A stretch of 64,000 nt of DNA from a virus, in UHGV virus genome UHGV-0038492. One strand, written 5' to 3'. The position numbers and the translations under genes were made by a program. Positions 2,710-53,226 of the stretch are shown one piece after another. Position 1 is the stretch's first letter. Each line of letters starts with the position of its first letter. The notes under the pieces were generated by a model. The model worked only from the letters and a program-made list of their open reading frames with translations, searched no databases and was not told the DNA's origin.

Positions 2710-5379
2710 TTAGAGAGTTTCATCGGTGTTGTCGTCTGTACCGGTATCCGTCTCGTCCGTGCCCTCAGTTGAAACTTCTTCTTCCGTTGTCGTATCGGTT
2801 TCCGTCGTTTCATCATCGGTCATGTCCAAGTCTTCATCACCGCCCAGATCGTCGCCACCAAAGTCGTTGCCCCCGCCGAAGTTATTGGCGTCTTCAGGAT
2901 TCAAATCAGCCGCTTTTGCTATCGTCTGAACTTTACCGGTCGCACGTTTTGCTAACTGAATCAGCGTCTTCGATGCTGCTGCAATTTCATCAGAAATCAT
3001 CTTGACGTTTTCACCACGTTTATCTTCATCGTAGATCAAATCAAACAGATCGGTTTCGATGCCCTGATTACGTAGCCAGTTGCGCGCGTAGAAGGTCTTA
3101 ACCATCGTCTTGAGGTCATCAGGTGACATTTCAATACCTTCGTTCTGAAGCATATTAGCAATGTCGTCCGTGACCACCAGATCTGCAAGTTTCTCGATAA
3201 ATTCATAGCGTTTATCGAAGAGATCAGCTTGAGATGCTGTTGCAGAAGTATCAGGCGGCGGCAAGGTGACCTTCATACCGTTTATAAACTTCGCCATATA
3301 CTCTGACGTTTGTTTTGTCATCTCTTCGCTAGTTACATTCGGATTCTGCTCACGGATATACTCAACGATAATACGGATGAGTTCTGCTTGCAGTTTCGGT
3401 GAAGCTTGCAGACTGTTTGTAACGTAGCGCGTAAGCGGGGTTGAGAGGATTTCCTGTTTCTTCACAATCTGTTGAGTAACCAACAGCGATTTAGAATAAA
3501 TCTGAGAAGCAAACTCCAGGTTCTCCGGGGTAAGTACAAGGTCAGGATCAACACACGCGATGTGACATGTACGGCGTAACAGGTTCTCGTCAATTTGTTG
3601 ATCAGGAACTTTATACTCCGGCGTGGTATCAGACACAGATACTTTGTGGCTGGCGTAGTAATCGTTACCCGTTACGTTAAAGGCAATCCCCGCGTTAGCC
3701 CCCATTGACCAGGCGTCGTTGATATCACCCCACATCGGCAGGCGACGATTGTAGGAATTAAGGATATCTGATTTAACTTGGTCAACAGTTTTTTGACCGT
3801 TTGCATCATCTGGTGACAGCTCAATGTCGTACTGCATGTGACGTGCCGAGTTCAGTACAGATGAGTTCATCGTTGCGAACAGCAGCGCCATCCTGACAGT
3901 AGAGATAATAAAGGAGCGCTCAGTAATAGAAACCCCGATACCGTCTTCGTTAAAGTCCGTTGCAAAATAGCACAAGTTATTAACCGGAATGTAAACCACC
4001 TGAGTATGACGTTTTGCGAGATGCCGCGCTAACAGAATACGACCGAATGTTTCGGTAATATTCATGCTGATTTCTGCGCCACCTAGTGCCTGACTTAATG
4101 CGCGTGCAAATTCGTTTTCAGCGATTTCACCACAACGTGTACTTAAACGGTTGGCGATTTCCGGGGTAATACGAGAAGTGTTCCCTAAGCCCAGATTAGA
4201 ACGGTTAATGATGCTGTCCGTCATCCCGTCGTTATTCAGGTAGTTCATAAAGTTCGCATCGCCGTACAGCGAGGAGCGAGCATTGATGAAGTTACCCATG
4301 TCATCTACGATGGTCAGATAACCGATAGGGTTACGAACGTCATCGCCAATTACCAGTGGCAGCGTTGACTCTGCGGGCAGTAAACGTTCGATGTATTCGA
4401 TTTTGTTATTCTCATCCATTGAGATAATAGGAATATCACCGTACGTTTGTGTTTTCGGTGTTGACTTATACGCCTCGTTTAAATCACCCAAGTTAATGAA
4501 CCCTTTTTCAGCAGCGTCACGCTGACGGTCATCGAAAGATTGATTAGGGTCGAACGGACTGCCACCGTTTGGTGTAGACGGCTTTTCATATGCGGCTTGC
4601 TCTAATTGCCCGTACAATCCCGTACGTGCGTTCTCATGCGCAATACGACGATACAAATCCGGCAGCATGGTAATGCGCGGGTTATCGGTAATCGTGATTT
4701 CCATCTGGAATTTATCCGAGAACATCGAATCGTGCTTACCGAAATCGATTTTCAATGTTTGTGGACCAGTAACGGCTCCGCGTAAACGGTTGAGAATTGA
4801 TTCTACACCAACTCGCTGCCCTTCTTTCGGCGCATTAATAGGCCCGAGGATACCAAGCTGTTGTTCGAAGAACGCCGTTTGAGAACGACGAATAGATTCA
4901 GTAGCGACCTTTGTATTCAGACCGAATAATTGGTCGAAGCCGGTATCCGAGATTATCATCACTGGACTTGCGCCTTTGGTTTTTAACGCATCGTAAATCC
5001 ACTGATATAATTTCTTAGGTAGCTGACGAATGTTATCGTGATAATCACGGGTCGGTGTCAGTAGCGCGTTACGCAGATCAATGGGGATGTCCGCGAAGTT
5101 GTCGTAAATCAACGTCGTGTTGATTAAGTCTTTTGTTGATAGCAGGCTCGAAGTTGCAATAGTAACGATTGTTTCGAGTTCAGGTAACGCATCAAAGATA
5201 CGTTCCGCATTTTTGATAGTACGAATACGTGAACTCGCAATTGCCGTGAGTTCTTGACGTGTTGGCGTAGAACCACCCTCGCTACGCGTACCGCGTTGTT
5301 GCTGAGGTGCTGGGCCCGTAGTTTTACGAAGAATTGCAGCTACGGCGGGGTCGCCCGTTAATTTACTAATATCGTCCAT
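2710..5379 (-). CDS. large hypothetical protein with strongly acidic C-terminal tail (possible virion protein)
   Basis: 889-aa ORF; last ~55 residues almost entirely D/E/T/G; no P-loop seen; a virion/portal-like role is speculation only. Confidence 0.8.
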   Translation of the reverse strand: MDDISKLTGDPAVAAILRKTTGPAPQQQRGTRSEGGSTPTRQELTAIASSRIRTIKNAERIFDALPELETIVTIATSSLLSTKDLINTTLIYDNFADIPIDLRNALLTPTRDYHDNIRQLPKKLYQWIYDALKTKGASPVMIISDTGFDQLFGLNTKVATESIRRSQTAFFEQQLGILGPINAPKEGQRVGVESILNRLRGAVTGPQTLKIDFGKHDSMFSDKFQMEITITDNPRITMLPDLYRRIAHENARTGLYGQLEQAAYEKPSTPNGGSPFDPNQSFDDRQRDAAEKGFINLGDLNEAYKSTPKTQTYGDIPIISMDENNKIEYIERLLPAESTLPLVIGDDVRNPIGYLTIVDDMGNFINARSSLYGDANFMNYLNNDGMTDSIINRSNLGLGNTSRITPEIANRLSTRCGEIAENEFARALSQALGGAEISMNITETFGRILLARHLAKRHTQVVYIPVNNLCYFATDFNEDGIGVSITERSFIISTVRMALLFATMNSSVLNSARHMQYDIELSPDDANGQKTVDQVKSDILNSYNRRLPMWGDINDAWSMGANAGIAFNVTGNDYYASHKVSVSDTTPEYKVPDQQIDENLLRRTCHIACVDPDLVLTPENLEFASQIYSKSLLVTQQIVKKQEILSTPLTRYVTNSLQASPKLQAELIRIIVEYIREQNPNVTSEEMTKQTSEYMAKFINGMKVTLPPPDTSATASQADLFDKRYEFIEKLADLVVTDDIANMLQNEGIEMSPDDLKTMVKTFYARNWLRNQGIETDLFDLIYDEDKRGENVKMISDEIAAASKTLIQLAKRATGKVQTIAKAADLNPEDANNFGGGNDFGGDDLGGDEDLDMTDDETTETDTTTEEEVSTEGTDETDTGTDDNTDETL

Positions 5380-17674: not shown

Positions 17675-17715
17675 CTCAGATATATATTACCTTAGTGAGA
17701 TTACACAGTAATCTC
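17671..17715 (+). promoter_or_regulatory. promoter-like motif TTTTCTCAGATATATATTACCTTAG followed by hairpin (copy 1)
   Basis: Near-identical 20-nt AT-rich element recurs at 39209 and 43638; hairpin GAGATTA-CACAG-TAATCTC follows; sits just after a terminator and ~55 nt before the HTH gene. Confidence 0.55.
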
Positions 17716-31937: not shown

Positions 31938-34900
31938 ATGGCAAAAGCGGTAAAGAAAATACGATTACATAATCTTAGACCATATACCGGTGATATCGGT
32001 GAAGGCGTTTTACTTTTCTCCAAGGATGAGAAAGATTATAAGTTACCAGTCCGTGAGATCATTGCGGATATTGACACCGTACGTAATGCGGTGGCTGAAG
32101 CACAGACAGCAGCAACACAATCACAAGAAGCTGCAACTCAGGCTACACAAGCAAAGAATTTAGCAGAAACAGCAAAACAACAAACTGACACCGTTGCAGC
32201 TACGGTTGCTCAACAAGCGCAAACTGTAACCGAAAAAGCAACTGAAGTCGGTACAAAACACACTGAAGTGTTAGCCGCGAAAACTGCGGTAGACGAAGTA
32301 TCAGTGTCGGTGAATGAGAAGGCTCAAGCTGTCGCCGCAAGCGAACAATCGGTGACGGCTGCTGCGGCTGATGTAACTAAGAAAGCAGAAACGGTTGCGC
32401 AACAGGCCGGACAAGTTCAACAGACGGCTACCAGCGTCGCAAATACTGCGGCATCAGTTGAGGCCAGTAAAGGTGCAGTGGAGAAAATTGCTGCGCAGGT
32501 CACGAAAGATAAAGAAACGTCGGAGGGCGCGGCTACCCGCTCAGAAGCGGCCGCACAACGTGCTGAGAAAATCGCCGCCCAAGGCTTAGTTGACGCTAGT
32601 ACGATCGGTAAAGGCATCGTTAAACTTAACGATACCCTGACTAGTGAATCCGTGACGGAGGCTGCCACGCCGTCCACGGTTAAACAGCTGAACGACGAAT
32701 TACAGTTAAAAGCCAATAAACATTCGCCGAATTTTACGGGTAAACCGACATCCCCAAAACCGCCGAAGGACTCGAATGACACGAGCATCTCCACAACGTC
32801 CTGGGTGCGTGACGCGATTGCTGAATTGGTTGGTTCCTCACCCGAGACGTTAAATACCTTAGCGGAATTAGCAGAGGCGTTAGGTAATGACCCTAACTTC
32901 GCAACAACGATCACTGAGGAGCTTGCGCAGAAGCAACCTATCAGCCCATTACTCACCGCAATCGCTGCGGTTACAAGTGCAGCAAACAAACTCCTGTATT
33001 TCACGGGCTCTAATAAAGTCGAGTTAACCGATTTTACAGAAACTGCCAGATCCTTGTTAGCGAAAGGGTCAACTGCGGATATTATTAACTTCCTGGGTTT
33101 GAAACCCACCGTTGATAAAGCAAACGGCGCACTACAGAAAAACTCTAACGGTGCTGATATCCCAAATAAAGAAACTTTTGCTCGCAACATCGGCCTATCT
33201 CCTGATACCTATCTGCGTTTCCGTGGCAAAATGCCTGTAGATGCTGATATTAACACATTTGCTCCAGATGCTAATTACACAGGAACGTGGTCTAAGTCGA
33301 CATCAACCAATGCGTCGATGGCAAAACACTTCCCAGAAGACGGTGCAGTCGGTTATCTGGAAGTGTATAAAGCGGGCAACTACAGTGGCGCGCAACGTTT
33401 TACCTGTCGTAATGGTAACGTGTACAACCGTATGTTGTCAGCCGCGTGGAACGGAACTAATGGCCCGTGGTCGCCGTGGAGAATGGTAACTACCGGTGTA
33501 CGCCCGTTATCTACATCGATTGATCTGAACTCTTTAGGCGGTGCCGAACACATGGGTAACTGGCGTAACTCGTCCAGTTCGTTAGCGGTGTTTGACAGAC
33601 ATTATCCTGAAGAGGGCGGTGGCGCTCAAGGTGTTCTGGAAGTCATGGAAGGTGGTCTTTACGGACGGTTGCAGCGATACACTACGCGTCGTGGCACAAT
33701 GTATGTCCGTGGTTTGACTGCAACATGGGATTCATCAAACCCACAATGGGAAGATTGGATTCAGGTTGGTTATCAGACTGACGGTGCTTTCTTTAAAGCC
33801 AATTTTAACGATCTCGTTAAACCGGGTCGTTTCAGTGTCACTGGTCAGGCAACTAACGGCCCACTTACCGGTTCTTCTGGCGAAACCATATTAGGCGTTT
33901 GTGAAGTTACCTTACGCTTAGACGGTACAGGGGTCGAACAGAATTATACCACATACGGCACGGGTGCAGAAACTAAAGGTCGTAAATTCCAACGTATCCG
34001 TACGGGTAACATTTGGAGCGATTGGCGTGAGGTTTTCACATCCTATTCGCTTCCGTTGGCCTTAGGTATCGGTGGGGTTGCTGCCAAGGTCGATCCGTTA
34101 GACTGGCAAACCTTCGACTTCGTTCCTGGCCAGATGATAAGCACACCGTTGAATACCATGAAAAACATTCCTGCGGGAATGGATTGGGGTGTTATTGACG
34201 GTAACTTGGTCACTATTCTTGTAGGGGCGTCGGAGGACACCGGTACTGGTCGGAGTATGTTGGTCTGGCGTGGTACAGTGTCTACTGCTAACTATCGCTT
34301 CTTTGCAGTACGTATCGCCGGTGAGAAGGGTAGCCGTACGATTACGCCACGACAGATGCCTGTGTTAAATGCAGCACACACTTGGGCCGAGAAACAAACG
34401 TTCTCTAAAGGCTTAGCGGGTGAATTGACAGGTAATGCGTCAACGGCAACGAAACTGAAAACAGCCCGTTTAATCGGTGGTGTAAGTTTCGACGGCACTA
34501 GCGACATTCCACTCCCTGGTGTTAACCAGCAAGGTAATCAAAACACCACTGGGAACGCGGGAACCGCAACCAAATTACAAACGGCTCGAAACATCAACGG
34601 TGTGAAATTCGATGGCTCTAGAGACATCAATATCAACACCTTGGTAGGACGTGGACGTGTTACTGCACTGACGGGATCAAACAAAGGTACGCCTGGTATT
34701 CAGATGTACGAAGTTTACAATAACGGTTATCCGACCGCTTATGGTAACTTATTGCATTTGGGTGGTGCTACTGCGCTAGGCGAAGGCGAGTTGTTAATCG
34801 GATGGTCGGGGACGAGTGGTGCGCACGCGCCAGTTTATATTCGTAGCCGACGTGATACGGCTGACGCGCCGTGGTCAGATTGGGCACAAGTTTATACTGC

Positions 34901-36497
34901 CCGTGACAGCATTCCTGGCGTAAATGCCACAGGTAATCAAGATACTACCGGCAATGCCGCTACCGCGACGAAACTGAAAACCGCTCGCAGAATTGGAGGC
35001 GTTACCTTTGACGGTACTGGGGATATCAATTTACCGGGGGTTAACCAAGCCGGTAACCAGAATACGTCAGGTAATGCTGCGACAGCGACTAAACTTCAGA
35101 CTGCGCGAAATATAGGCGGTGTGGCTTTTGATGGTACTAAAGACATCAGTTTACCTGGTGTAAACCAGACGGGTAATCAGTCGACTACCGGAAACGCAGC
35201 CACGGCCACAAAGTTGCAGACAGCTCGTACCATTAACGGTATCCCATTTGACGGCACTAGAAATATATCGTTAGGGCCTGCCGATATAGGTTGCCCGGCA
35301 TCACCTAGTGGTTGGTTAGAAACTGGCGCTGATGGCGCTGCAATAACTACAGCACAGCTAGTGACGTTATTGAAAAATAACGGCGCGTTTACCACAAGAT
35401 CGTGGGTTGCTCGCTGCGCATGGGCTTATGCCGCTAGTGCAAGTATACCTCATAGCGAGACGGGTTGTGGTGTTATTCCATTAGCTGGGGCTGTTATAGA
35501 AGTGATTAGTAACGGCAACAGCACAAACAACTACACGATCCGTATAACGACCGCCACAACGACGAGCGTCTCCGGCGCACTCACTAATGCGGAGTTTATC
35601 TACGTATTTAACGGCGATACTTACTCACCAGGTTGGCGTCGCGTGTACAATACGAGAAACAAGCCAACTGCTGCGGATGTTGGGGCGTTGCCATTATCTG
35701 GCGGTCAGTTGAATGGCGCGTTGGGTATTGGAACCACTAATGCTTTAGGTGGGAACTCCATAGTTTTAGGGGATAATGACACCGGCCTTAAGCAGAACGG
35801 GGATGGCGTTCTAGATGTTTACGCCAATAATGCTCATGTTTTACGCTTTACGAGTGGGGCTGTTCAAAGCAATAAACCTCTCAACGTTACCGGAGATATA
35901 AGAACCAATACTTGGGTTTATGCAAATAGATATTCTATTAACAGCAACTCAGGTTCTTGGATTAGCATGAGAGACCATAACGTTATTTTTGGTCTTAATC
36001 CGGTAGGAACTAGTTCTGCTCAGGCATTGTTAAGACAAGACCATGCTGATAGGAAATTTTTTGTTGGTGGTTTAGGTAACTATCAATTCGGCTTTTACAT
36101 GATAAACAACTCACGTACTGATAATGGCACCGATGCTAATGCTTATTTGCAAAACGACGGTACTTGGGTTTGTGGTGGGAACGGTAACTTTAACGACGTT
36201 TATATACGATCTGACGCCCGGCTGAAAAGTAATTTCTCTCCAATAACTAATGCATTGGAGAAGGTAAAGGAATTGTCAGGTTTAATATACGACAAAAAGG
36301 AGAACTTTAAATCCACTAATGTTCATCGTGAGGCTGGTGTTGTAGCGCAGACCTTACAAAAAGTGTTACCTGAAGCAGTTTCTACTTATAAAGACGCTAA
36401 TGGTGAGGACGTTTTGACGGTCTCTAACTCTGCACAAATAGCTCTACTTATTGAAGCAATAAAGGAGTTGGCGGAGATAATTGAGACCAAGTTATAA
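31938..36497 (+). CDS. long tail fibre protein with C-terminal intramolecular chaperone (peptidase S74-like) domain
   Basis: 1519 aa; conserved N-terminal anchor; Ala/Gln/Thr-rich helical stretch; four knob-like repeats ending W-x-x-W; five copies of the TGNAATATKLQTAR...FDG fibre repeat; C-terminal SDARLKSN motif of endosialidase/T5-fibre-type self-cleaving chaperones. Confidence 0.9.
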   Translation: MAKAVKKIRLHNLRPYTGDIGEGVLLFSKDEKDYKLPVREIIADIDTVRNAVAEAQTAATQSQEAATQATQAKNLAETAKQQTDTVAATVAQQAQTVTEKATEVGTKHTEVLAAKTAVDEVSVSVNEKAQAVAASEQSVTAAAADVTKKAETVAQQAGQVQQTATSVANTAASVEASKGAVEKIAAQVTKDKETSEGAATRSEAAAQRAEKIAAQGLVDASTIGKGIVKLNDTLTSESVTEAATPSTVKQLNDELQLKANKHSPNFTGKPTSPKPPKDSNDTSISTTSWVRDAIAELVGSSPETLNTLAELAEALGNDPNFATTITEELAQKQPISPLLTAIAAVTSAANKLLYFTGSNKVELTDFTETARSLLAKGSTADIINFLGLKPTVDKANGALQKNSNGADIPNKETFARNIGLSPDTYLRFRGKMPVDADINTFAPDANYTGTWSKSTSTNASMAKHFPEDGAVGYLEVYKAGNYSGAQRFTCRNGNVYNRMLSAAWNGTNGPWSPWRMVTTGVRPLSTSIDLNSLGGAEHMGNWRNSSSSLAVFDRHYPEEGGGAQGVLEVMEGGLYGRLQRYTTRRGTMYVRGLTATWDSSNPQWEDWIQVGYQTDGAFFKANFNDLVKPGRFSVTGQATNGPLTGSSGETILGVCEVTLRLDGTGVEQNYTTYGTGAETKGRKFQRIRTGNIWSDWREVFTSYSLPLALGIGGVAAKVDPLDWQTFDFVPGQMISTPLNTMKNIPAGMDWGVIDGNLVTILVGASEDTGTGRSMLVWRGTVSTANYRFFAVRIAGEKGSRTITPRQMPVLNAAHTWAEKQTFSKGLAGELTGNASTATKLKTARLIGGVSFDGTSDIPLPGVNQQGNQNTTGNAGTATKLQTARNINGVKFDGSRDININTLVGRGRVTALTGSNKGTPGIQMYEVYNNGYPTAYGNLLHLGGATALGEGELLIGWSGTSGAHAPVYIRSRRDTADAPWSDWAQVYTARDSIPGVNATGNQDTTGNAATATKLKTARRIGGVTFDGTGDINLPGVNQAGNQNTSGNAATATKLQTARNIGGVAFDGTKDISLPGVNQTGNQSTTGNAATATKLQTARTINGIPFDGTRNISLGPADIGCPASPSGWLETGADGAAITTAQLVTLLKNNGAFTTRSWVARCAWAYAASASIPHSETGCGVIPLAGAVIEVISNGNSTNNYTIRITTATTTSVSGALTNAEFIYVFNGDTYSPGWRRVYNTRNKPTAADVGALPLSGGQLNGALGIGTTNALGGNSIVLGDNDTGLKQNGDGVLDVYANNAHVLRFTSGAVQSNKPLNVTGDIRTNTWVYANRYSINSNSGSWISMRDHNVIFGLNPVGTSSAQALLRQDHADRKFFVGGLGNYQFGFYMINNSRTDNGTDANAYLQNDGTWVCGGNGNFNDVYIRSDARLKSNFSPITNALEKVKELSGLIYDKKENFKSTNVHREAGVVAQTLQKVLPEAVSTYKDANGEDVLTVSNSAQIALLIEAIKELAEIIETKL
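34428..35272 (+). repeat. in-frame tandem tail-fibre repeats (about 38 aa each), five copies interrupted by one knob-like domain
   Basis: Protein-level repeats GNQNTTGNAGTATKLQTARNINGVKFDGSRDI and variants; nucleotide copies are diverged. Confidence 0.8.
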
Positions 36498-39210: not shown

Positions 39211-39258
39211 TTCTCAGATATATATTACCTAGAGGAGAGCGAAATTTACATTCGCTCT
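39209..39258 (+). promoter_or_regulatory. promoter-like motif TTTTCTCAGATATATATTACCTAG followed by hairpin (copy 2)
   Basis: Identical core to copy 1; hairpin AGAGCGAA...TTCGCTCT; sits after a terminator and ~50 nt before ORF 39286. Confidence 0.55.
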
Positions 39259-43637: not shown

Positions 43638-43682
43638 AATTTCAGATATATATTACCTAGGTGAGAGTTCAGCTACTCTCAC
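43638..43682 (+). promoter_or_regulatory. promoter-like motif ATTTCAGATATATATTACCTAG followed by hairpin (copy 3)
   Basis: Identical 18-nt core; hairpin GTGAGAG...CTCTCAC; ~50 nt before ORF 43712. Confidence 0.55.
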
Positions 43683-47325: not shown

Positions 47326-48174
47326 ATGTCTCTTACGTCAAAACAGAAACTGCTAAAACTCATCAACACTGAAAACAATATTATTCCACCGTTGACTTTC
47401 AGTGATGTTGAAATCGGGGAACCTACCGGTACTGGGGTTGATACCCAGGTGGTTCTGACCTCTAAACTTAAAGGCGATGAGTCTACTACTTTAACAGTGA
47501 CTTACCACCGTCGTAACTTACCTGACTACCTAACCGGTGAGTTGGTATTCGGTAACGACAGTGTGGTAACCGCATCAGATTTGCTTAATGCGATTAACGC
47601 AAAATACAACCTAAATATTTTACCCTCGGATATCGTTGACGCAAAAGTTGAAGGCGAAACCCATCAGCTTACCGCTAACGAGAAATCTTACGAGTGGTGC
47701 GGTGTAGTAACGCTTACGCTGCGCGATCCTATTGACCTGACTGAACTGTTACCGGTTACTCAATTAGAGAATCTGGTAGAGTATCCGTCCACGAAGAAAG
47801 GTAACGCGGCGGTTTATTCTCACCCGATTGATTTCACCGCAGAAAAAGATTACCTTGACCCGATTACTATCAACGACGCTGTAGACTTGGTAGAATTAGC
47901 TACTAAACTGGATAGCGTCGTTGACGAGAAATGGGTAAGCGTACCTAAGAACGCGGCTAACAACCTGTACGGAGCGAAGATTATTTACGATGGTCCAACC
48001 GCAGGTTACGAAGGCGCAAATACGAAGTTCACTCGTGTGTTGGTGCTAACACTCAGCCCGCTGTGTTCTAACCTGACCGGTAACCTGTTAATTCACTTTA
48101 ACGGGACCGATCGTCCGAAGTCGAAGATTGAATTAGCACAGACTAATCCGGTCTTACCGGGATTCTTAGATTAA
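47326..48174 (+). CDS. hypothetical protein, fibre-associated small-protein family (extended)
   Basis: 282 aa; contains SDLLNAINAKYNLNILPSDI matching the family motif. Confidence 0.65.
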   Translation: MSLTSKQKLLKLINTENNIIPPLTFSDVEIGEPTGTGVDTQVVLTSKLKGDESTTLTVTYHRRNLPDYLTGELVFGNDSVVTASDLLNAINAKYNLNILPSDIVDAKVEGETHQLTANEKSYEWCGVVTLTLRDPIDLTELLPVTQLENLVEYPSTKKGNAAVYSHPIDFTAEKDYLDPITINDAVDLVELATKLDSVVDEKWVSVPKNAANNLYGAKIIYDGPTAGYEGANTKFTRVLVLTLSPLCSNLTGNLLIHFNGTDRPKSKIELAQTNPVLPGFLD

Positions 48175-48187
48175 GAGGATTACAGTA

Positions 48188-48667
48188 ATGGCCAATCAAG
48201 AAACTATCTTCGACCTTATTAAAAAGGCTAACCCGGACGCTGAGTTCGACACCACCAAAGTCACACTGGGTGAACCGGTTGTGACCACCGGTACTTACAA
48301 TACCGAAATTACGGTTGCGTCGATTAAGAATCTCGGTTATGTTAATAAGCAAACGTTCCAGTATAACCGCATTGACGCAGGTTTGTATTTCCTGAACGTA
48401 TTACCGAAATTGTTGGTAGAATCTGCAACGACTACCGCTGACTTACTGCCCGTCATTAACGAGCAGTACAGCCTAACCCTTACAGAAGACGACGTGTGGG
48501 TAGAACAGGTTGGTGAGTTACCGTTAGACGGTAGCGCAATCGAACACGGTATTTTCTTCCGTCCTGAGTGTCTGACCTGGGTTGGTGGTTTTACAGTGCG
48601 TGTTGCGCGTAAACCGGCTGACGCCACACCGCCAAAGACGGCGTCTCGCGCTAAAAAGAAAAAATAA
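48188..48667 (+). CDS. hypothetical protein, same family
   Basis: 159 aa; ADLLPVINEQYSLTLTEDDV motif; Lys-rich C-terminus; terminator downstream. Confidence 0.6.
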   Translation: MANQETIFDLIKKANPDAEFDTTKVTLGEPVVTTGTYNTEITVASIKNLGYVNKQTFQYNRIDAGLYFLNVLPKLLVESATTTADLLPVINEQYSLTLTEDDVWVEQVGELPLDGSAIEHGIFFRPECLTWVGGFTVRVARKPADATPPKTASRAKKKK

Positions 48668-48729: not shown

Positions 48730-49320
48730 ATGGCCGAACGTTGGACTAAAGAAGGTATTATTGAATCCAAAACCGATTTGGAAGGTGGGTACGTCAACGA
48801 CCCTGACGACAAAGGTGGAGAAACCTGTCACGGGGTAACACTGACAACTGCACGCGAATACGGGTACAAAGGAAGAATGAAAGATCTGACCCGTGCGCAA
48901 GCGTTTGACATTTACGATCGTGGTTGGTGGAAGAAACTTAAACTCGATGAGATTTTCGCTATCTCGCCGATACTCGCCGACCGGATGTTTGATTTTGCTA
49001 TTAACTCTGGCCGTGTTAACTGTGTGAAGTCATTACAACGTATTCTCAACGTTTTAAATAACGAAGGGAAACTTTACGCAGATATTGACACCGACGGTGG
49101 TATGGGACCTAAAACACTAGGTGCTCTGAATGCTTATCTAAATTACCGTAAAGGCGAGGGATTAGGCATCTTAATCTTTGCGTTAATCTCACACCAGGTA
49201 ACCTACTACACGGAAATCTCCGAAAAGCGTAAGAAGAATGAAAAATTCGCTTACGGCTGGTACGGACGTGTGTACAGGGAAATGCCGGATTATGTAGTGA
49301 AGGCGGGGTTAGTAAAATGA
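48730..49320 (+). CDS. endolysin-like peptidoglycan hydrolase (GH108-type N-acetylmuramidase)
   Basis: N-terminal EGGYVNDPDDKGGETCHGVT matches the conserved GH108 signature (EGGYxNDPxDxGGxTxxG). Confidence 0.7.
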   Translation: MAERWTKEGIIESKTDLEGGYVNDPDDKGGETCHGVTLTTAREYGYKGRMKDLTRAQAFDIYDRGWWKKLKLDEIFAISPILADRMFDFAINSGRVNCVKSLQRILNVLNNEGKLYADIDTDGGMGPKTLGALNAYLNYRKGEGLGILIFALISHQVTYYTEISEKRKKNEKFAYGWYGRVYREMPDYVVKAGLVK

Positions 49321-49421
49321 ATTGGTTTGCTAAACTCTTAGCGTTATTGTGGAAAGCGTTAACGTCTGGTCGAAAACGTAAAGACGAAAAACGTGGGCAA
49401 GAATTCTTCTGGTTTTTGTAA
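49317..49421 (+). CDS. 34-aa amphipathic peptide (possible lysis accessory)
   Basis: ATGA overlap with endolysin stop; MNWFAKLLALLWKALTSGRKRKDEKRGQEFFWFL; too short for the ORF track. Confidence 0.3.
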   Translation: MNWFAKLLALLWKALTSGRKRKDEKRGQEFFWFL

Positions 49422-49436
49422 GGAAAGGTGTGGGTA

Positions 49437-50102
49437 ATGGAAAAGCTTCAATATAAACGTTTAGATGATAAGTGGTTTGTATTAACGGAGGATTACCATT
49501 ATCCGTTTACGTTACGTGAGATTTATCACGACCACGTACACTTAGACCGTGCGGTTTATTTAACCGGTGTATTACCTGACACGCAACTGTGGTTAACCGC
49601 TCCGAAAGGGTTCGTAACGGACTTAGCGTCGATACCCGAACACTTACAGGGAATTTTCCATCCTGACGGGCCTTGGGCACCGGCTGCGTGTATTCACGAC
49701 TTGTTATACCAGAAATGCAGTACGGAACGTAGCTACCCTATGACGCCCGGTGGAAACGTTTCTCGCATTATCGATAAAGAGTTCGCTGACTTAACGTTTC
49801 TGCGTATTATGCAGTCGTTAGAAATCTCACCGTATATCTGCCAAACGTTTTATAAAGCCGTTGTAGGATTCGGTTGGGATGCTTACGTAGACCCTAACGC
49901 GAAACCGTCTTATACCACTAACGACTACCGTACGTTAGATTACAATCGAAACTATTTGTTCGTTCGCGAGTTTAAGGAGCCTGCTATTCCTGACCACGAA
50001 CGAGTTGATATCACCACAGGTTGTCCCGTTAATGTCAAATACCTGAACATTAAACGGGCTTTTCTGTCTGGGAGGGAAGATGTTTCATCCAAATCCGAGT
50101 AA
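49437..50102 (+). CDS. hypothetical protein (DUF1353-like, tentative)
   Basis: AAGGAAAGG RBS before ATG 49437; segment GFVTDLASIP resembles DUF1353-type phage proteins. Confidence 0.55.
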   Translation: MEKLQYKRLDDKWFVLTEDYHYPFTLREIYHDHVHLDRAVYLTGVLPDTQLWLTAPKGFVTDLASIPEHLQGIFHPDGPWAPAACIHDLLYQKCSTERSYPMTPGGNVSRIIDKEFADLTFLRIMQSLEISPYICQTFYKAVVGFGWDAYVDPNAKPSYTTNDYRTLDYNRNYLFVREFKEPAIPDHERVDITTGCPVNVKYLNIKRAFLSGREDVSSKSE

Positions 50103-50595
50103 CTTTAAAATCAAAGAGTTAGTACCGCAATCGTACATCACCAAATACGGTGATTCTGCAATTCGGTTTATGAACCCGCTGTTAATGATTTCGCTACAGC
50201 AGATTCGTAACCGTTTCGGCAGAATGGTAATTAACTCGTCTGCTGCGCAACAACGTGGTTTAAGAACCTTAGACTTTTTCATCAACCAAGAAAAGCCTAA
50301 GGGTGGTAACTATAAACAACGTGCTTTACAACTCTATTCCGATTCAGGAAGTCAGCACAAGTTCGGTAACGCGTTCGACGCAACATTGTTAGATTCAACG
50401 GTAAAACAAGTCCACGATTACATCGCCGCCAATCCTGATGAGTTTCCGTTTATTCACTTTATTGAATGCGACATCAGTTGGTTACATATCGATGTTCGTA
50501 ACCAACCGAATATCACGTTCTGGTCACCGAATCGGGGTACTGTGAAAGTCGCGAAACAAAGCCCTATCGATTGGAGCGCCTTAGTTAAAATCTAA
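50080..50595 (+). CDS. peptidase M15-like (LAS-type zinc peptidoglycan peptidase)
   Basis: SQHKFGNAFD fits the SxHxxGxAxD zinc-binding motif and a later WLHID provides the second His. Confidence 0.5.
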   Translation: MFHPNPSNFKIKELVPQSYITKYGDSAIRFMNPLLMISLQQIRNRFGRMVINSSAAQQRGLRTLDFFINQEKPKGGNYKQRALQLYSDSGSQHKFGNAFDATLLDSTVKQVHDYIAANPDEFPFIHFIECDISWLHIDVRNQPNITFWSPNRGTVKVAKQSPIDWSALVKI

Positions 50596-50679
50596 GCGCA
50601 TATTCCTTAACTTAGGGTGATTGTACCTTATTTTGTATAAACCGTCTTAGAACGCGTTCTAGCGCGCTCTACGGACAAA

Positions 50680-50718
50680 ATAAACCTACCCTCCTGCTTA
50701 GCAGGAGGGTATTTATTA
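50680..50718. terminator. bidirectional terminator between convergent genes
   Basis: ACCCTCCTGC-TTA-GCAGGAGGGT flanked by A-rich and T-rich tracts. Confidence 0.7.
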
Positions 50719-51195
50719 TTCTACCGGGTGCAGCATAGTGCCGGTATCTGGAATGCTGCCTTCGTGACATCTGAAGAACGTTACACCTTTACCTTCACCT
50801 GTTTTGTAGTTGATGGTAGAATACGCAAACGTTGGGGTTTTCGACAGTAACCCGTTTACACGGTAATAGCGCTCACCGGTAACAACGTTTAAGTTACCGT
50901 CCACTTTACCTAACAGGTCTTTATAAAGTTGCGGAGATTCAATTTTACCTTCGTCCCATGTAGCGACCCAATTCGCTCCTGTATCCATGACTAACACCGA
51001 AAGGGGCATCAGTTTTAGGCTAGACGGTACCGGTTTAAAATCAGCGAATTCTTGAGAAGCACCTGTACAGGTGTAAATGACCATATCGTGTTGGTCAACA
51101 GGTACGGTGGAGAACTGACCTTCTGCGTTCGGCTGAATAGCACAACTTGCCAATGTCATTACAAAAGCAACGACCACGAGAATGCGTTTTAGCAT
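50716..51195 (-). CDS. lipoprotein (signal peptide with lipobox LASC)
   Basis: AAGGATGAG RBS before ATG at 51195; MLKRILVVVAFVMTLASC; lone minus-strand gene between two plus-strand blocks with terminators on both sides. Confidence 0.65.
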   Translation of the reverse strand: MLKRILVVVAFVMTLASCAIQPNAEGQFSTVPVDQHDMVIYTCTGASQEFADFKPVPSSLKLMPLSVLVMDTGANWVATWDEGKIESPQLYKDLLGKVDGNLNVVTGERYYRVNGLLSKTPTFAYSTINYKTGEGKGVTFFRCHEGSIPDTGTMLHPVE

Positions 51196-51334
51196 AATCT
51201 CATCCTTATTAAAATTAAGAAAAATTAATTTTTTCAGGTTAGCGCTTACTGCCAACCGTCATATCTATATTTTAGGAAATGTCTAAAATAACATTCTTAT
51301 GCAATCCACCCCTGCCACTTACGAGGTAAAAACG

Positions 51335-51871
51335 ATGGCTAAAGCCTTCAAACAGCAGCTCATCGAAGCTGTAATTGCTAAAAACTCAGAAACCGCTTCT
51401 AATCTGACGGTTGCTGATGTTGATTTTGGCGCTGTTGCTGAGTTCAGCGGAGACGCTGGCCGCAACACTAAAATTACCCTGACCGCCAAGGCAGAAAGCC
51501 AGAACTTCAAAGGCGAGAAAGAATTCCACTACATTCGTCTGGCTTCTCAAGACCTGATCGGTGCTAAAGCTTACGAACAAGCCGGTAGCCTCGATCTGGA
51601 AAACTCTGCCATTGTAACCAAACTGAACGAAGAAATGGTTACTAAAGGTTATGTCGATGACGAGTTTGCAGAGAGCGAACTGTCCATTGAGAAATCCGAA
51701 GGCGACAGCGGTGCTAAAGTTTACACTGTCAAAGTAAGCGAAGGTCACATCAAATTCCTGGCTGGTACCATTGCCACCTTCACTTATTCCAACCCAGCTC
51801 CTGAGAAGGTAGCACTGAGCGGTCTGGAAGGTGAACTTGATGGCTTCACTGCGCCGGGTGTCGGTGGCTAA
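51335..51871 (+). CDS. hypothetical protein, paralog 1 (C-terminal GELDGFTA motif)
   Basis: GAGGT RBS before ATG 51335; host-like high-expression codon choice; paralogous to ORF 51943. Confidence 0.65.
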   Translation: MAKAFKQQLIEAVIAKNSETASNLTVADVDFGAVAEFSGDAGRNTKITLTAKAESQNFKGEKEFHYIRLASQDLIGAKAYEQAGSLDLENSAIVTKLNEEMVTKGYVDDEFAESELSIEKSEGDSGAKVYTVKVSEGHIKFLAGTIATFTYSNPAPEKVALSGLEGELDGFTAPGVGG

Positions 51872-51883
51872 GTAAGTTAAATC

Positions 51884-51904
51884 GGGGGGGGGGTGACCTC
51901 CCCC
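51884..51904 (+). other. G10...C5 homopolymer hairpin between the GELDGFTA paralogs
   Basis: ATCGGGGGGGGGG TGACCT CCCCCGAT about 40 nt before ATG 51943. Confidence 0.6.
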
Positions 51905-51942
51905 GATATTTCTTTAACTCGTATTATTAAGGACCTAAGATA

Positions 51943-52473
51943 ATGGCCGCTACTAACCAGATGATGTTGGTCGCGCTTTATAATGCTGCTAACACTGAGC
52001 TACCGCATCAGATTACAGATAAAGAAGTGTCCTTTGGTTTGCCTGCTGCGCTGGAAGGCGAAGGTAAGAATACCAAAGTTACCATGACCGCACTACCGGG
52101 TTCTGAGAATTTCAAAGGCGAAATCGAACTGCATTACGATCGTCTGGAGCCAGGTGTTGTAGGACGGATTGAACTAACTGACGATCTGTCTCGCTGGGTT
52201 CAAGAAAATGAACTCCGTGCTTGGTTACAGTATTACATCAACAAAGTAAAACCTGACGACGCTATCGCACCAGGCGACGTTGTGTACAACACCGAAGACC
52301 AGAAAGACGAACATGAAAACGTCACTCTGCGTACCGTGACGTGCACCGTTACTGAAAAGAACCTCCGTTATAAACCAGGTGTAATGGCAACTTTCGTAAT
52401 TACACCGAAGGTTGTCGATAATCGTATTGACCTGGCCACCACCAACGGTGAGTTGGACGGCTTTACTGCTTAA
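51943..52473 (+). CDS. hypothetical protein, paralog 2 (C-terminal GELDGFTA motif)
   Basis: AAGGA RBS; shares TK(I/V)T(L/M)TA...ENFKGE and the C-terminal motif with ORF 51335. Confidence 0.65.
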   Translation: MAATNQMMLVALYNAANTELPHQITDKEVSFGLPAALEGEGKNTKVTMTALPGSENFKGEIELHYDRLEPGVVGRIELTDDLSRWVQENELRAWLQYYINKVKPDDAIAPGDVVYNTEDQKDEHENVTLRTVTCTVTEKNLRYKPGVMATFVITPKVVDNRIDLATTNGELDGFTA

Positions 52474-52510: not shown

Positions 52511-52546
52511 TACCTACCTCCGTAAAGGAGGTAGGTATTTTTTTTT
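52511..52546. terminator. bidirectional terminator between convergent genes
   Basis: TACCTACCTCC-GTAAA-GGAGGTAGGTA flanked by an A-run and T9. Confidence 0.75.
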
Positions 52547-52554
52547 GCCGCTAA

Positions 52555-53226
52555 TTACAGCCCTTGCTCTAATGCAAACGCTTTAATTGAATCGTAATCA
52601 CGGGCTTCGGCCCAAGCTCTGACTTCTTTTTTCTGTTCCGTCATTGCCTGATGCAGTTGCTGGTCGCGTTGCACAATAGCACCCAGCAGTGTTTTGCACT
52701 GCTCTAACGTAAACGGTTCGATACGGGTGTTGTTGGCCGTTAACCAATACGCTGGCGCGGTTTCTGACTGAATATAACGACTCAGTGCTACCTGTGACTT
52801 CTCATCTGCCTGGAAAGTGAAATCACCCACTTGAATCTCGGCATACCGCGCATCCTGATAACGGAATTCCAATGCGCTTAGGATTTTCTGAACATCGGTA
52901 AAGATATACCGCACAGTGGAGCGTAAACCCGTACGAATCTCTTCCAGGTCAATTCCCAACGTGTCGTTAACAAAGTCTTTCGCTTTCTGTAACGTAAATC
53001 GTGCTTCGATTTCAGACATGTCGTAGTTACGCATTTGTTCCAATGCTTCACGATCGGACATCCCATCAATCAATTTATAGTGCAGTAACGCACAAAAACC
53101 CGTACGACCATGATCTTCGCTACCGATTTTTTCCATATAGTTACCATGGCGGTCAATCGGTAAATCGTGCTCAAAATAACGACGACGGATTTCTTCTTTC
53201 GTTAAGCCTTCACCAGTAGCAGACAT
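52555..53226 (-). CDS. hypothetical protein, last gene of the fibre/radical-SAM operon
   Basis: 223-aa ORF overlapping the upstream gene by 25 nt; terminator downstream. Confidence 0.6.
   Translation of the reverse strand: MSATGEGLTKEEIRRRYFEHDLPIDRHGNYMEKIGSEDHGRTGFCALLHYKLIDGMSDREALEQMRNYDMSEIEARFTLQKAKDFVNDTLGIDLEEIRTGLRSTVRYIFTDVQKILSALEFRYQDARYAEIQVGDFTFQADEKSQVALSRYIQSETAPAYWLTANNTRIEPFTLEQCKTLLGAIVQRDQQLHQAMTEQKKEVRAWAEARDYDSIKAFALEQGL

Follow-up and report, generated by a model that had tools for sequence, protein, structure and literature searches.

The 64,000-nucleotide stretch of the virus genome UHGV-0038492 analysed here (the window) carries a gene for a putative outer-membrane lipoprotein on its minus strand (coding sequence 50716-51195), which encodes a precursor of 159 amino acids and a predicted mature protein of 142 residues (15.6 kDa, isoelectric point 5.1). 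It is the sole minus-strand gene between positions 5379 and 52555, in agreement with the original prediction of a single opposite-strand gene amid plus-strand genes, and is preceded by the ribosome binding site that was also expected there, a Shine-Dalgarno motif (AAGGA, 51207-51203, minus strand) read from the sequence with a 7-nt spacer to the ATG. An AGGA or GGA within a purine-rich block occurs at the equivalent position in six other phages. The open reading frame (ORF), as read and translated, is 159 codons long and is closed by two consecutive stop codons (TAATAA). The mechanical ORF list holds a longer, TTG-initiated version of this frame extending up to 51255; the homologs start at the MLKR/MKR position in all cases, and the Prokaryotic Genome Annotation Pipeline (PGAP) places a gene of equal length (480 bp) at the matching position of the related Escherichia coli record NZ_CP173450.1. 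Ratios of nonsynonymous to synonymous substitution rates (dN/dS) of 0.06-0.12 relative to three close relatives indicate that the gene is real and under purifying selection. Its composition and codon usage are native to the phage, with a GC content of 0.454 (window mean 0.444), a GC content at third codon positions (GC3) of 0.438 (window 0.439) and a codon-adaptation index of 0.774 (window 0.737).

In the N-terminus of the encoded protein (MLKRILVVVAFVMTLAS, followed by the lipobox cysteine), K3 and R4 are the two basic residues, the hydrophobic core spans 11 residues, and an alanine comes directly after the lipobox L-A-S-C. Lipoprotein signal peptides were recognized by a lipobox of the form [LVI][ASTVI][GAS]C behind a basic n-region and a hydrophobic h-region, assessed by motif rather than with a dedicated predictor, and the protein has all of these features of substrates of Lgt, LspA and Lnt. 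The predicted signal peptide (residues 1-17) and the putatively lipid-modified Cys18 correspond to positions 51142-51195 (minus strand), with the lipobox formed by L15-A16-S17-C18 and alanine at the +2 position. Among the approximately 80 genes of the window, this is the only one encoding a lipobox within the first 40 residues. The lipobox, which had been part of the original prediction, is kept in all 21 family members analysed, with an invariant C18 and a nearly invariant L15, and the +2 residue is alanine, valine or serine in every one of them. According to the Lol avoidance rule, lipoproteins of Enterobacterales with a +2 residue other than aspartate are sorted to the outer membrane. The alanine at this position thus predicts outer-membrane sorting, and the product is probably lipid-anchored in the outer membrane of the host.

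An AlphaFold2 model computed from a 13-sequence alignment (mean predicted local distance difference test score (pLDDT) 79.6) contains the signal helix (residues 2-16), a short tether of low confidence and ten strands between residues 28 and 145, with pLDDT values of approximately 85-93 over residues 31-140. The mature part is therein predicted to be a compact all-beta domain, a small up-and-down barrel on a tether of about 10 residues. Besides the anchor Cys18, two cysteines are invariant, C43 in the second predicted strand and C143 in the last, which probably form a disulfide closing the barrel. Searches with Foldseek against the Protein Data Bank (PDB) yielded no match below an E-value of 0.03, and those against viral models returned family members and unnamed proteins only. 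Structural matches were confined to generic small barrels, among them NHBA, YceI, nitrobindin, OmpW and TbpB handle domains. No enzyme family was found among the sequence-family or structure matches, and the fold itself gives no sign of an enzyme. The modelled domain thus appears to be a barrel without a specific functional relative.

The window protein is an ortholog of gp159 of phage SPN3US (SPN3US_0159) and gp174 of phage Asesino, and it matches the function-unknown family PHROG 9559 with an E-value of 9e-70. The family was identified by tblastn in 55 phage records, comprising phages of Erwinia (27), Salmonella (22), Escherichia (four), Proteus (one) and 'Enterobacteria' (one); for comparison, the neighbouring DUF1353 protein has 64 full-length matches. 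It was not found in Derbicusvirus (Phobos, CR5, EarlPhillipIV and Derbicus) or in Vibrio phages. As only 14 proteins were recovered when 1.84 billion representative proteins were searched exhaustively by profile, the gp159 family is small. The most distant members are 28-41% identical and retain the lipobox cysteine, C43, C143, R109, Y111, R112, S126, G133 and G135; identity falls to 28-32% in distant relatives that share the same neighbouring gene families. No family of Pfam, NCBIfam or PADLOC matched any of the 21 members, even at an E-value of 10, and a sequence search of the PDB gave matches at chance level only (E-values of at least 0.09). Members are named 'hypothetical protein' or 'Lipoprotein' in the databases (PHROG 9559; UniProt), and a literature search on gp159 and the SPN3US lipoprotein found no paper discussing the family. 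Judged from these comparisons, gp159 and its relatives appear to constitute a new family of phage-encoded outer-membrane lipoproteins, whose entries are already present in databases. The lipoprotein is 54% identical to its SPN3US counterpart, compared with 78% for the M15-like protein encoded next to it and 82% for a radical SAM protein, and the corresponding values for the distant relative L028 are 31%, 60% and 67%. The lipoprotein therefore evolves faster than its neighbours, as is typical for interface proteins. Two library proteins (P0019 and P0022) contain gp159 segments in scrambled or reversed order, with seven to eight separate matched stretches each; these block-shuffled versions are probably artefacts of assembly or gene calling.

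A bidirectional hairpin resembling an intrinsic terminator (50687-50711, both strands) begins 5 nt past the lipoprotein stop codon and is shared with the convergent M15-like gene (50080-50595, plus strand). It has an 11-bp stem with seven G-C pairs and a 3-nt loop, and can serve both genes because T-rich runs are present on both strands. According to RNAfold, the stop codon is immediately followed by a comparably strong hairpin in six other phages (SPN3US, Asesino, SPAsTU, Wellington, ChrisDB and Caitlin). Given their similar strength and differing stem sequences, the 3' hairpin is conserved as a structure in these seven phages, including the window. Terminators had been expected on both sides of the gene, and this holds for the 3' side only: a terminator scan of the 139-bp divergent intergenic region (51196-51334) between the lipoprotein gene and the gp160-like head gene (51335-51871, plus strand) found no hairpin. 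The next hairpins (51881-51907 and 52511-52537) each lie 3' of a neighbouring plus-strand gene, and insulate the lipoprotein gene from the minus-strand operon ending at 52555 rather than bracketing it directly. Terminator-like G-run hairpins (9-10 G, GGGGGGGGGGTGACCTCCCCC) recur after structural genes, both at 51881-51907 and upstream of 31938, and their stem composition is unusual for a phage of 44% GC. A further element, TAGAACGCGTTCTAAG, is located at 50646-50661 between the M15-like gene and the bidirectional hairpin; its first 14 bases form a perfect palindrome. It has one exact copy in the window, is exactly present in Asesino and several metagenomic relatives, and is recognisable in SPN3US, SPAsTU and Wellington.

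Approximately 60 nt before the ATG, the divergent intergenic region contains an element ATATGAC (51258-51264, minus strand; consensus tATATGAC), a candidate core of a phage-RNA-polymerase promoter that includes TATG. TATGAC is present upstream of the gene in seven of seven aligned phages, within a poorly conserved spacer, and ATATGAC occurs three times in 64 kb, with two copies being intergenic and ahead of a gene. On the plus strand of the same region, TTATGCA precedes the head gene. PhiKZ-like phages transcribe their genes with their own polymerases; their early promoters are AT-rich and phage-specific, and the late promoters of phiKZ have only a TATG core at the start site in common (PMC7598289). 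Matches to a host sigma-70 promoter were at chance level, and such a promoter is probably irrelevant given the polymerases encoded by phiKZ-like phages themselves (PMC7598289). TATG as a general upstream signal was likewise rejected, as the intergenic DNA of the window contains 12 sense and six antisense copies and hence no clear enrichment; the promoter class is consequently read from the conservation of ATATGAC across phages only. This weakly suggests that the lipoprotein gene is transcribed by the non-virion polymerase as a gene of the middle or late class and not with the earliest genes.

Two observations on promoter-like motifs concern the window as a whole. The motif CAGATATATATTACCT has three exact copies (at approximately 17676-17691, 39214-39229 and 43642-43657, with the core ATATATTAC at 17682, 39220 and 43648), each of which follows a hairpin with a T-run; one copy precedes a gene for a helix-turn-helix protein and two precede genes without a family match, while related TTTATTAC variants are located ahead of the thymidylate kinase gene and others. 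CAGATATATATTACCT is probably the early-type promoter motif of this phage, its class being assigned by comparison with published phiKZ-like promoters (PMC7598289). Furthermore, TATG is rare in the window, with 219 copies on both strands compared to approximately 500 expected, and is far more frequent on the sense (2.45 per kb) than on the antisense strand (0.86 per kb) of coding regions. This pattern could reflect the avoidance of spurious late-promoter cores or plain codon bias.

The lipoprotein gene is flanked by a series of plus-strand genes encoding DUF7941 head paralogs identified by family match (47326-48667), an endolysin of the GH108 type that has a peptidoglycan-binding domain (48730-49320; at most 1.4 kb from the lipoprotein gene), an unannotated 34-codon ORF directly after the endolysin gene (49317-49421), a protein with a family match to DUF1353 (49428-50102) and the M15-like peptidase, the gene of which overlaps that of the DUF1353 protein by 23 nt and which has a weak match to Pfam Peptidase_M15_3 and a match to PHROG 894 ('endolysin'). 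On the other side, two short DUF7941 paralogs (51335-52473, plus strand), the first of them gp160-like, are followed on the minus strand by the gene for a DUF4376 protein (52555-53226; E-value 1.3e-11), an ortholog of SPN3US gp161, and beyond it by genes for a gp162-like protein and two radical SAM proteins. The DUF4376 domain is also present in PHROG families annotated as tail fibre. The original prediction had placed the gene near the receptor-binding modules, which is only loosely true: the flanks consist of M15-like, DUF1353, GH108 and DUF7941 genes, the tail-fibre gene (31938-36497) lies 14 kb upstream, and the DUF4376 gene is 1.4 kb away. The virion protein tables of SPN3US include gp155, gp157, gp158 and gp160 and lack gp156 (the endolysin) and gp159 (PMC5105663, PMC5694885). 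Of these, gp160 is a very abundant head protein of 'paralog family B'; gp158 is present in the virion in low amounts and is missing when particles lack a tail (PMC5105663, PMC5694885). Owing to the absence of gp159 from these tables, the lipoprotein gene is a non-structural gene set among structural genes.

The lone-strand lipoprotein gene is conserved across Seoulvirus, Erskinevirus, Wellingtonvirus and Machinavirus despite rearranged blocks, and always diverges from a short gene at the place taken by gp160 in SPN3US. On the 3' side, the neighbour can be an M15-like, a DUF1353 or a virion structural gene; a convergent M15-like gene is shared by the window, SPN3US, SPAsTU and the distant L028. 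In L028, the lipoprotein gene ends a run of structural-type genes that includes two DUF7941 genes, whereas in the distant relative L023 it directly follows the genes for a 1024-aa tail fibre and a DUF4376 protein, and in L025 it is located among genes for DUF7941 proteins, two of which have matches to LRR_5 (faint) or DUF285. Such DUF7941 proteins with additional LRR_5 (faint) or DUF285 matches are encoded in L025 (1-3520 and 6623-8341) and L023 (1-1698), which suggests that they may serve as head-anchored, adhesin-like decorations. The M15-like protein of the window, an ortholog of SPN3US gp158, shares 27-35% identity with proteins from KVP40-like Vibrio phages and from small Vibrio cholerae phages including VP2 and phiVC8. 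Some of these proteins carry an endolysin annotation, and the M15-like protein is therefore likely a cell-wall enzyme associated with the tail.

In Derbicusvirus (Phobos, CR5), the M15-like gene is directly followed by the gp160-like gene and the lipoprotein gene is lacking, whereas in the window the lipoprotein unit (50596-51334) lies between the two. The arrangement resembles the presence/absence layout of a moron, as which the gene had originally been proposed. Of the own terminator and promoter typical of morons, a conserved terminator hairpin is present, and the conserved upstream element is a candidate promoter. The idea of a recent import did not hold: GC content, GC3 and codon usage are native, and divergent homologs exist, with relatives of 28-32% identity having kept the gene. 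As L028 is about as distant from the window as Derbicusvirus and yet retains the gene, the lipoprotein gene is old in the lineage, and a loss in Derbicusvirus is no less likely an explanation of the pattern than a gain elsewhere. Its absence from one genus also indicates that the gene is dispensable and accessory.

The window contains hallmarks of SPN3US-like giant phages, including many DUF7941 proteins, a radical SAM pair, an internal head protein, a 1001-aa tail protein, a 1519-aa tail fibre and large virion structural proteins. A megablast search of phage records with the 4 kb around the lipoprotein gene gave no match. Proteins that are 97-99% identical are encoded on contigs of approximately 220-227 kb from viral metagenome bins, in assemblies of isolates of many Salmonella serovars, E. 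coli and Shigella sonnei, and on two closed circular 'plasmids' of E. coli 98232 and Enterobacter ludwigii (NZ_CP173450.1, NZ_CP134650.1), the sole kinds of source in which the clade is represented. By these sequence features, the phage fits the proposed genus 'Bapsvirus', members of which have genomes of approximately 220-249 kb, belong to the Chimalliviridae, are syntenic with Seoulvirus and were described from bacterial assemblies, an occurrence read as carrier-like persistence (PMC12768965). Carrier-like persistence of such phages has also been described elsewhere (bioRxiv 10.1101/2024.12.31.630880).

Taken together, we tentatively favour a role of the lipoprotein in superinfection exclusion or another form of envelope protection. 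The protein would act in the cell envelope during infection or persistent infection, where it would most likely bind a conserved, periplasm-facing component of the outer membrane or of the incoming phage tail. Such binding would stop virions of the same or related phages from productive adsorption or injection, and could also prevent the loss of progeny on cell debris, in a mode resembling exclusion by T5 Llp or Rtp45 via an unrelated, larger protein. Exclusion is favoured because there is little other benefit for a phage in placing a domain of the binding type, without enzymatic activity, at the inside of the outer membrane, because the gene is dispensable in one genus, as expected of an accessory fitness gene, and because it evolves fast, as interface proteins do. 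Furthermore, distant homologs adjoin fibre genes, and these phages are frequent in isolate assemblies, where immunity to reinfection would pay. Llp and Rtp45 provide a precedent for periplasm-facing lipoproteins that remodel a receptor from the inside (PMC9586334, PMC12685063).

Several features link the protein to these systems and others set it apart. Llp of T5 (and of BF23) binds FhuA from its periplasmic side and is, like the lipoprotein described here, phage-encoded with a lipoprotein signal peptide; the predicted anchoring site of both is the outer membrane's inner leaflet, and both are encoded by single genes with their own expression signals, the promoter being putative here, in virulent phages. 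The llp gene adjoins the gene for the T5 receptor-binding protein and differs in this respect from the lipoprotein gene of the window, which is not located beside a receptor-binding gene. The target of Llp is of the TonB-dependent transporter type, in contrast to the flagellar receptor reported for SPN3US. In Llp, a disulfide between Cys11 and Cys58 ties the N- and C-terminal parts together (PMC9586334), with C43/C143 being the candidate counterpart here, but mature Llp has 61 residues (PMC9586334) compared with the predicted 142-residue beta-barrel. Rtp45 is a periplasm-facing lipoprotein that binds LptDE on the periplasmic side of the outer membrane and alters the extracellular loops of the receptor from inside (PMC12685063), and T1-like phages encode Cor proteins, which are small lipoproteins with an exclusion function (PMC9586334). 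The mechanism proposed here would be of the same type as that of these LptD- or FhuA-directed proteins, although Rtp45 is a sequence-unrelated protein of approximately 6 kDa (PMC12685063) and the mature window protein has 15.6 kDa. The likeness to Llp and Cor that the original prediction had invoked thus does not extend to sequence or fold, the mature protein being larger and a predicted beta-barrel. Overall, the underlying observation is largely correct and its interpretation a plausible, reasonable analogy, several supporting details of which were wrong, namely the terminators on both sides, the adjacency to receptor-binding genes and a recent acquisition as a moron.

A number of points weigh against exclusion. 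Neither a sequence match nor a specific fold match to Llp, Cor or any annotated exclusion family was identified using Pfam, PHROG, PADLOC and Foldseek, and Llp and Rtp45 are each less than half as large as the protein. No receptor-binding gene adjoins the lipoprotein gene in the window or in six named phages examined. The reported receptor of SPN3US is the flagellum (PMC11428620), for which simple masking by a periplasm-facing lipoprotein is a poor fit. Phages of Salmonella, E. coli, Proteus and Erwinia all retain the core sequence of the protein, which diverges along the phage tree and not with the host; conservation over phages of four host genera argues for a conserved target rather than a variable receptor. 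In addition, the upstream element contains a late-type TATG core, unlike the AT-rich motif before non-structural genes of the window, and Llp is made shortly after infection (bioRxiv 10.64898/2026.03.26.714494).

Alternatively, the protein could be a lysis-related factor of the outer membrane that cooperates with the GH108 endolysin and small membrane peptides, either through an o-spanin-like disruption or by timing or inhibiting lysis, which we regard as unlikely. The endolysin gene is close to the lipoprotein gene not only in the window (within 1.4 kb) but also in SPN3US, Asesino, Wellington and SPAsTU, the protein is the sole lipobox protein of the window, the TATG core upstream is late-type, the membrane proteins tested included no annotated spanin, and a 2026 jumbo-phage review does not mention spanins at all. 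Like the lambda Rz1-type o-spanins, the protein is a phage outer-membrane lipoprotein whose gene lies within a few genes of the endolysin gene in most genera. However, o-spanins are short, proline-rich proteins without a folded domain that are paired with an adjacent or embedded i-spanin, none of which is true here: the predicted product is a folded, probably disulfide-locked barrel with nine prolines among its 142 mature residues, and no membrane-anchored coiled-coil partner is encoded nearby. A search for i-spanins found none flanking the gene, and the window proteins with an N-terminal membrane helix, whose genes are over 7 kb distant, gave no match to a spanin family. Identity as an o-spanin was therefore rejected on account of the missing partner gene and the folded domain. 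The single spanin match (PHROG 1275, E-value 0.08) spans the signal peptide alone, the lipoprotein gene of Machinavirus, L023 and L025 is found apart from the endolysin gene and is surrounded by genes for structural or fibre proteins, and Derbicusvirus does without the lipoprotein. Furthermore, the cationic, amphipathic 34-aa peptide encoded after the endolysin is a more natural candidate for membrane disruption. This ORF (49317-49421, plus strand) encodes MNWFAKLLALLWKALTSGRKRKDEKRGQEFFWFL, an amphipathic peptide with a net charge of +4.5 and an isoelectric point of 10.6. Similar peptides are encoded at the same place in SPN3US (unannotated) and Asesino (gp172), and a second small membrane peptide (DNDDWPKGLMP...) is present there in SPN3US and SPAsTU. 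From their sequences, peptides of the MNWFAKLLALLWKALTSGRKRKDEKRGQEFFWFL type and the second peptide are candidate holin-like or outer-membrane-disrupting lysis peptides.

Somewhat less likely still, the lipoprotein could be a periplasmic inhibitor of a cell-wall hydrolase similar to MliC, PliC, PhiA or T4 Spackle, which would block a tail enzyme such as the M15-like gp158 and protect against lysis-from-without and secondary injection. Spackle (Sp), the inhibitor of the T4 tail lysozyme gp5, offers a functional analogy only, being a periplasmic phage protein that disarms the cell-wall enzyme of superinfecting tails. It is a small, helical, soluble protein and no lipoprotein. MliC, PliC and Brucella PhiA are lipoprotein or periplasmic inhibitors of peptidoglycan hydrolases, and PhiA was among the structural matches; moreover, E. 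coli MliC contains cysteines in its first conserved strand (EYQC) and near its C-terminus (LNNC). The convergence of the lipoprotein gene with the gene for an M15-like tail protein in the window, SPN3US, SPAsTU and L028 is likewise consistent with this function, as is the absence of the virion protein gp158 from tailless particles of SPN3US. Nevertheless, members of the MliC/PliC family other than PhiA are not among the best structural matches; the family fold is an eight-stranded beta-barrel, and the larger protein described here has ten predicted strands. The family profile with its conserved loop motifs (e.g. SxSGAxY of three MliC/PliC chains) was not matched. An hhalign comparison with an alignment of E. 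coli MliC, Pseudomonas aeruginosa MliC and Brucella PliC gave a probability of 0.3%, and Pfam MliC (PF09864) matched none of the 21 family members at E-values of up to 10. The distribution of the putative target also differs, since an M15-like match is present in eight Erwinia phage records compared to 27 with the lipoprotein, no M15 gene is annotated at the Asesino, Wellington and Machinavirus loci, and Derbicusvirus has the M15-like gene and lacks the lipoprotein. Least probable among the alternatives is a lipocalin-, YceI- or LolA-like barrel that binds a lipid or hydrophobic molecule and adjusts the outer membrane of the enlarged, long-lived cell without a direct role in exclusion or lysis, a doubtful proposal the basis of which is limited to generic fold matches.

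Returning to superinfection exclusion, a more specific and far-reaching version can be formulated, which we consider a long shot. The lipoprotein might allow nucleus-forming jumbo phages (Seoulvirus, 'Bapsvirus' and relatives) to persist in bacterial isolates: positioned at the inner face of the outer membrane, it would block flagellum-guided entry or tail penetration at a conserved late step, which would render carrier cells and their descendants immune to reinfection and lysis-from-without and would represent a new exclusion family with a new target.

Outer-membrane lipoproteins are a known means by which phages achieve exclusion, lysis and serum resistance. No such protein has been reported from nucleus-forming jumbo phages, and none is mentioned in the two overviews searched, the 2026 review and a 2021 comparative-genomics survey. 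If the protein is a lysis or housekeeping factor, it would be an ordinary accessory gene product. If, however, it blocks reinfection, it could help to explain the persistence of Seoulvirus and 'Bapsvirus' phages in isolates of Salmonella, E. coli and Shigella, would be relevant for phage cocktails containing SPN3US-like phages, and would point to a conserved envelope component on which these phages depend.

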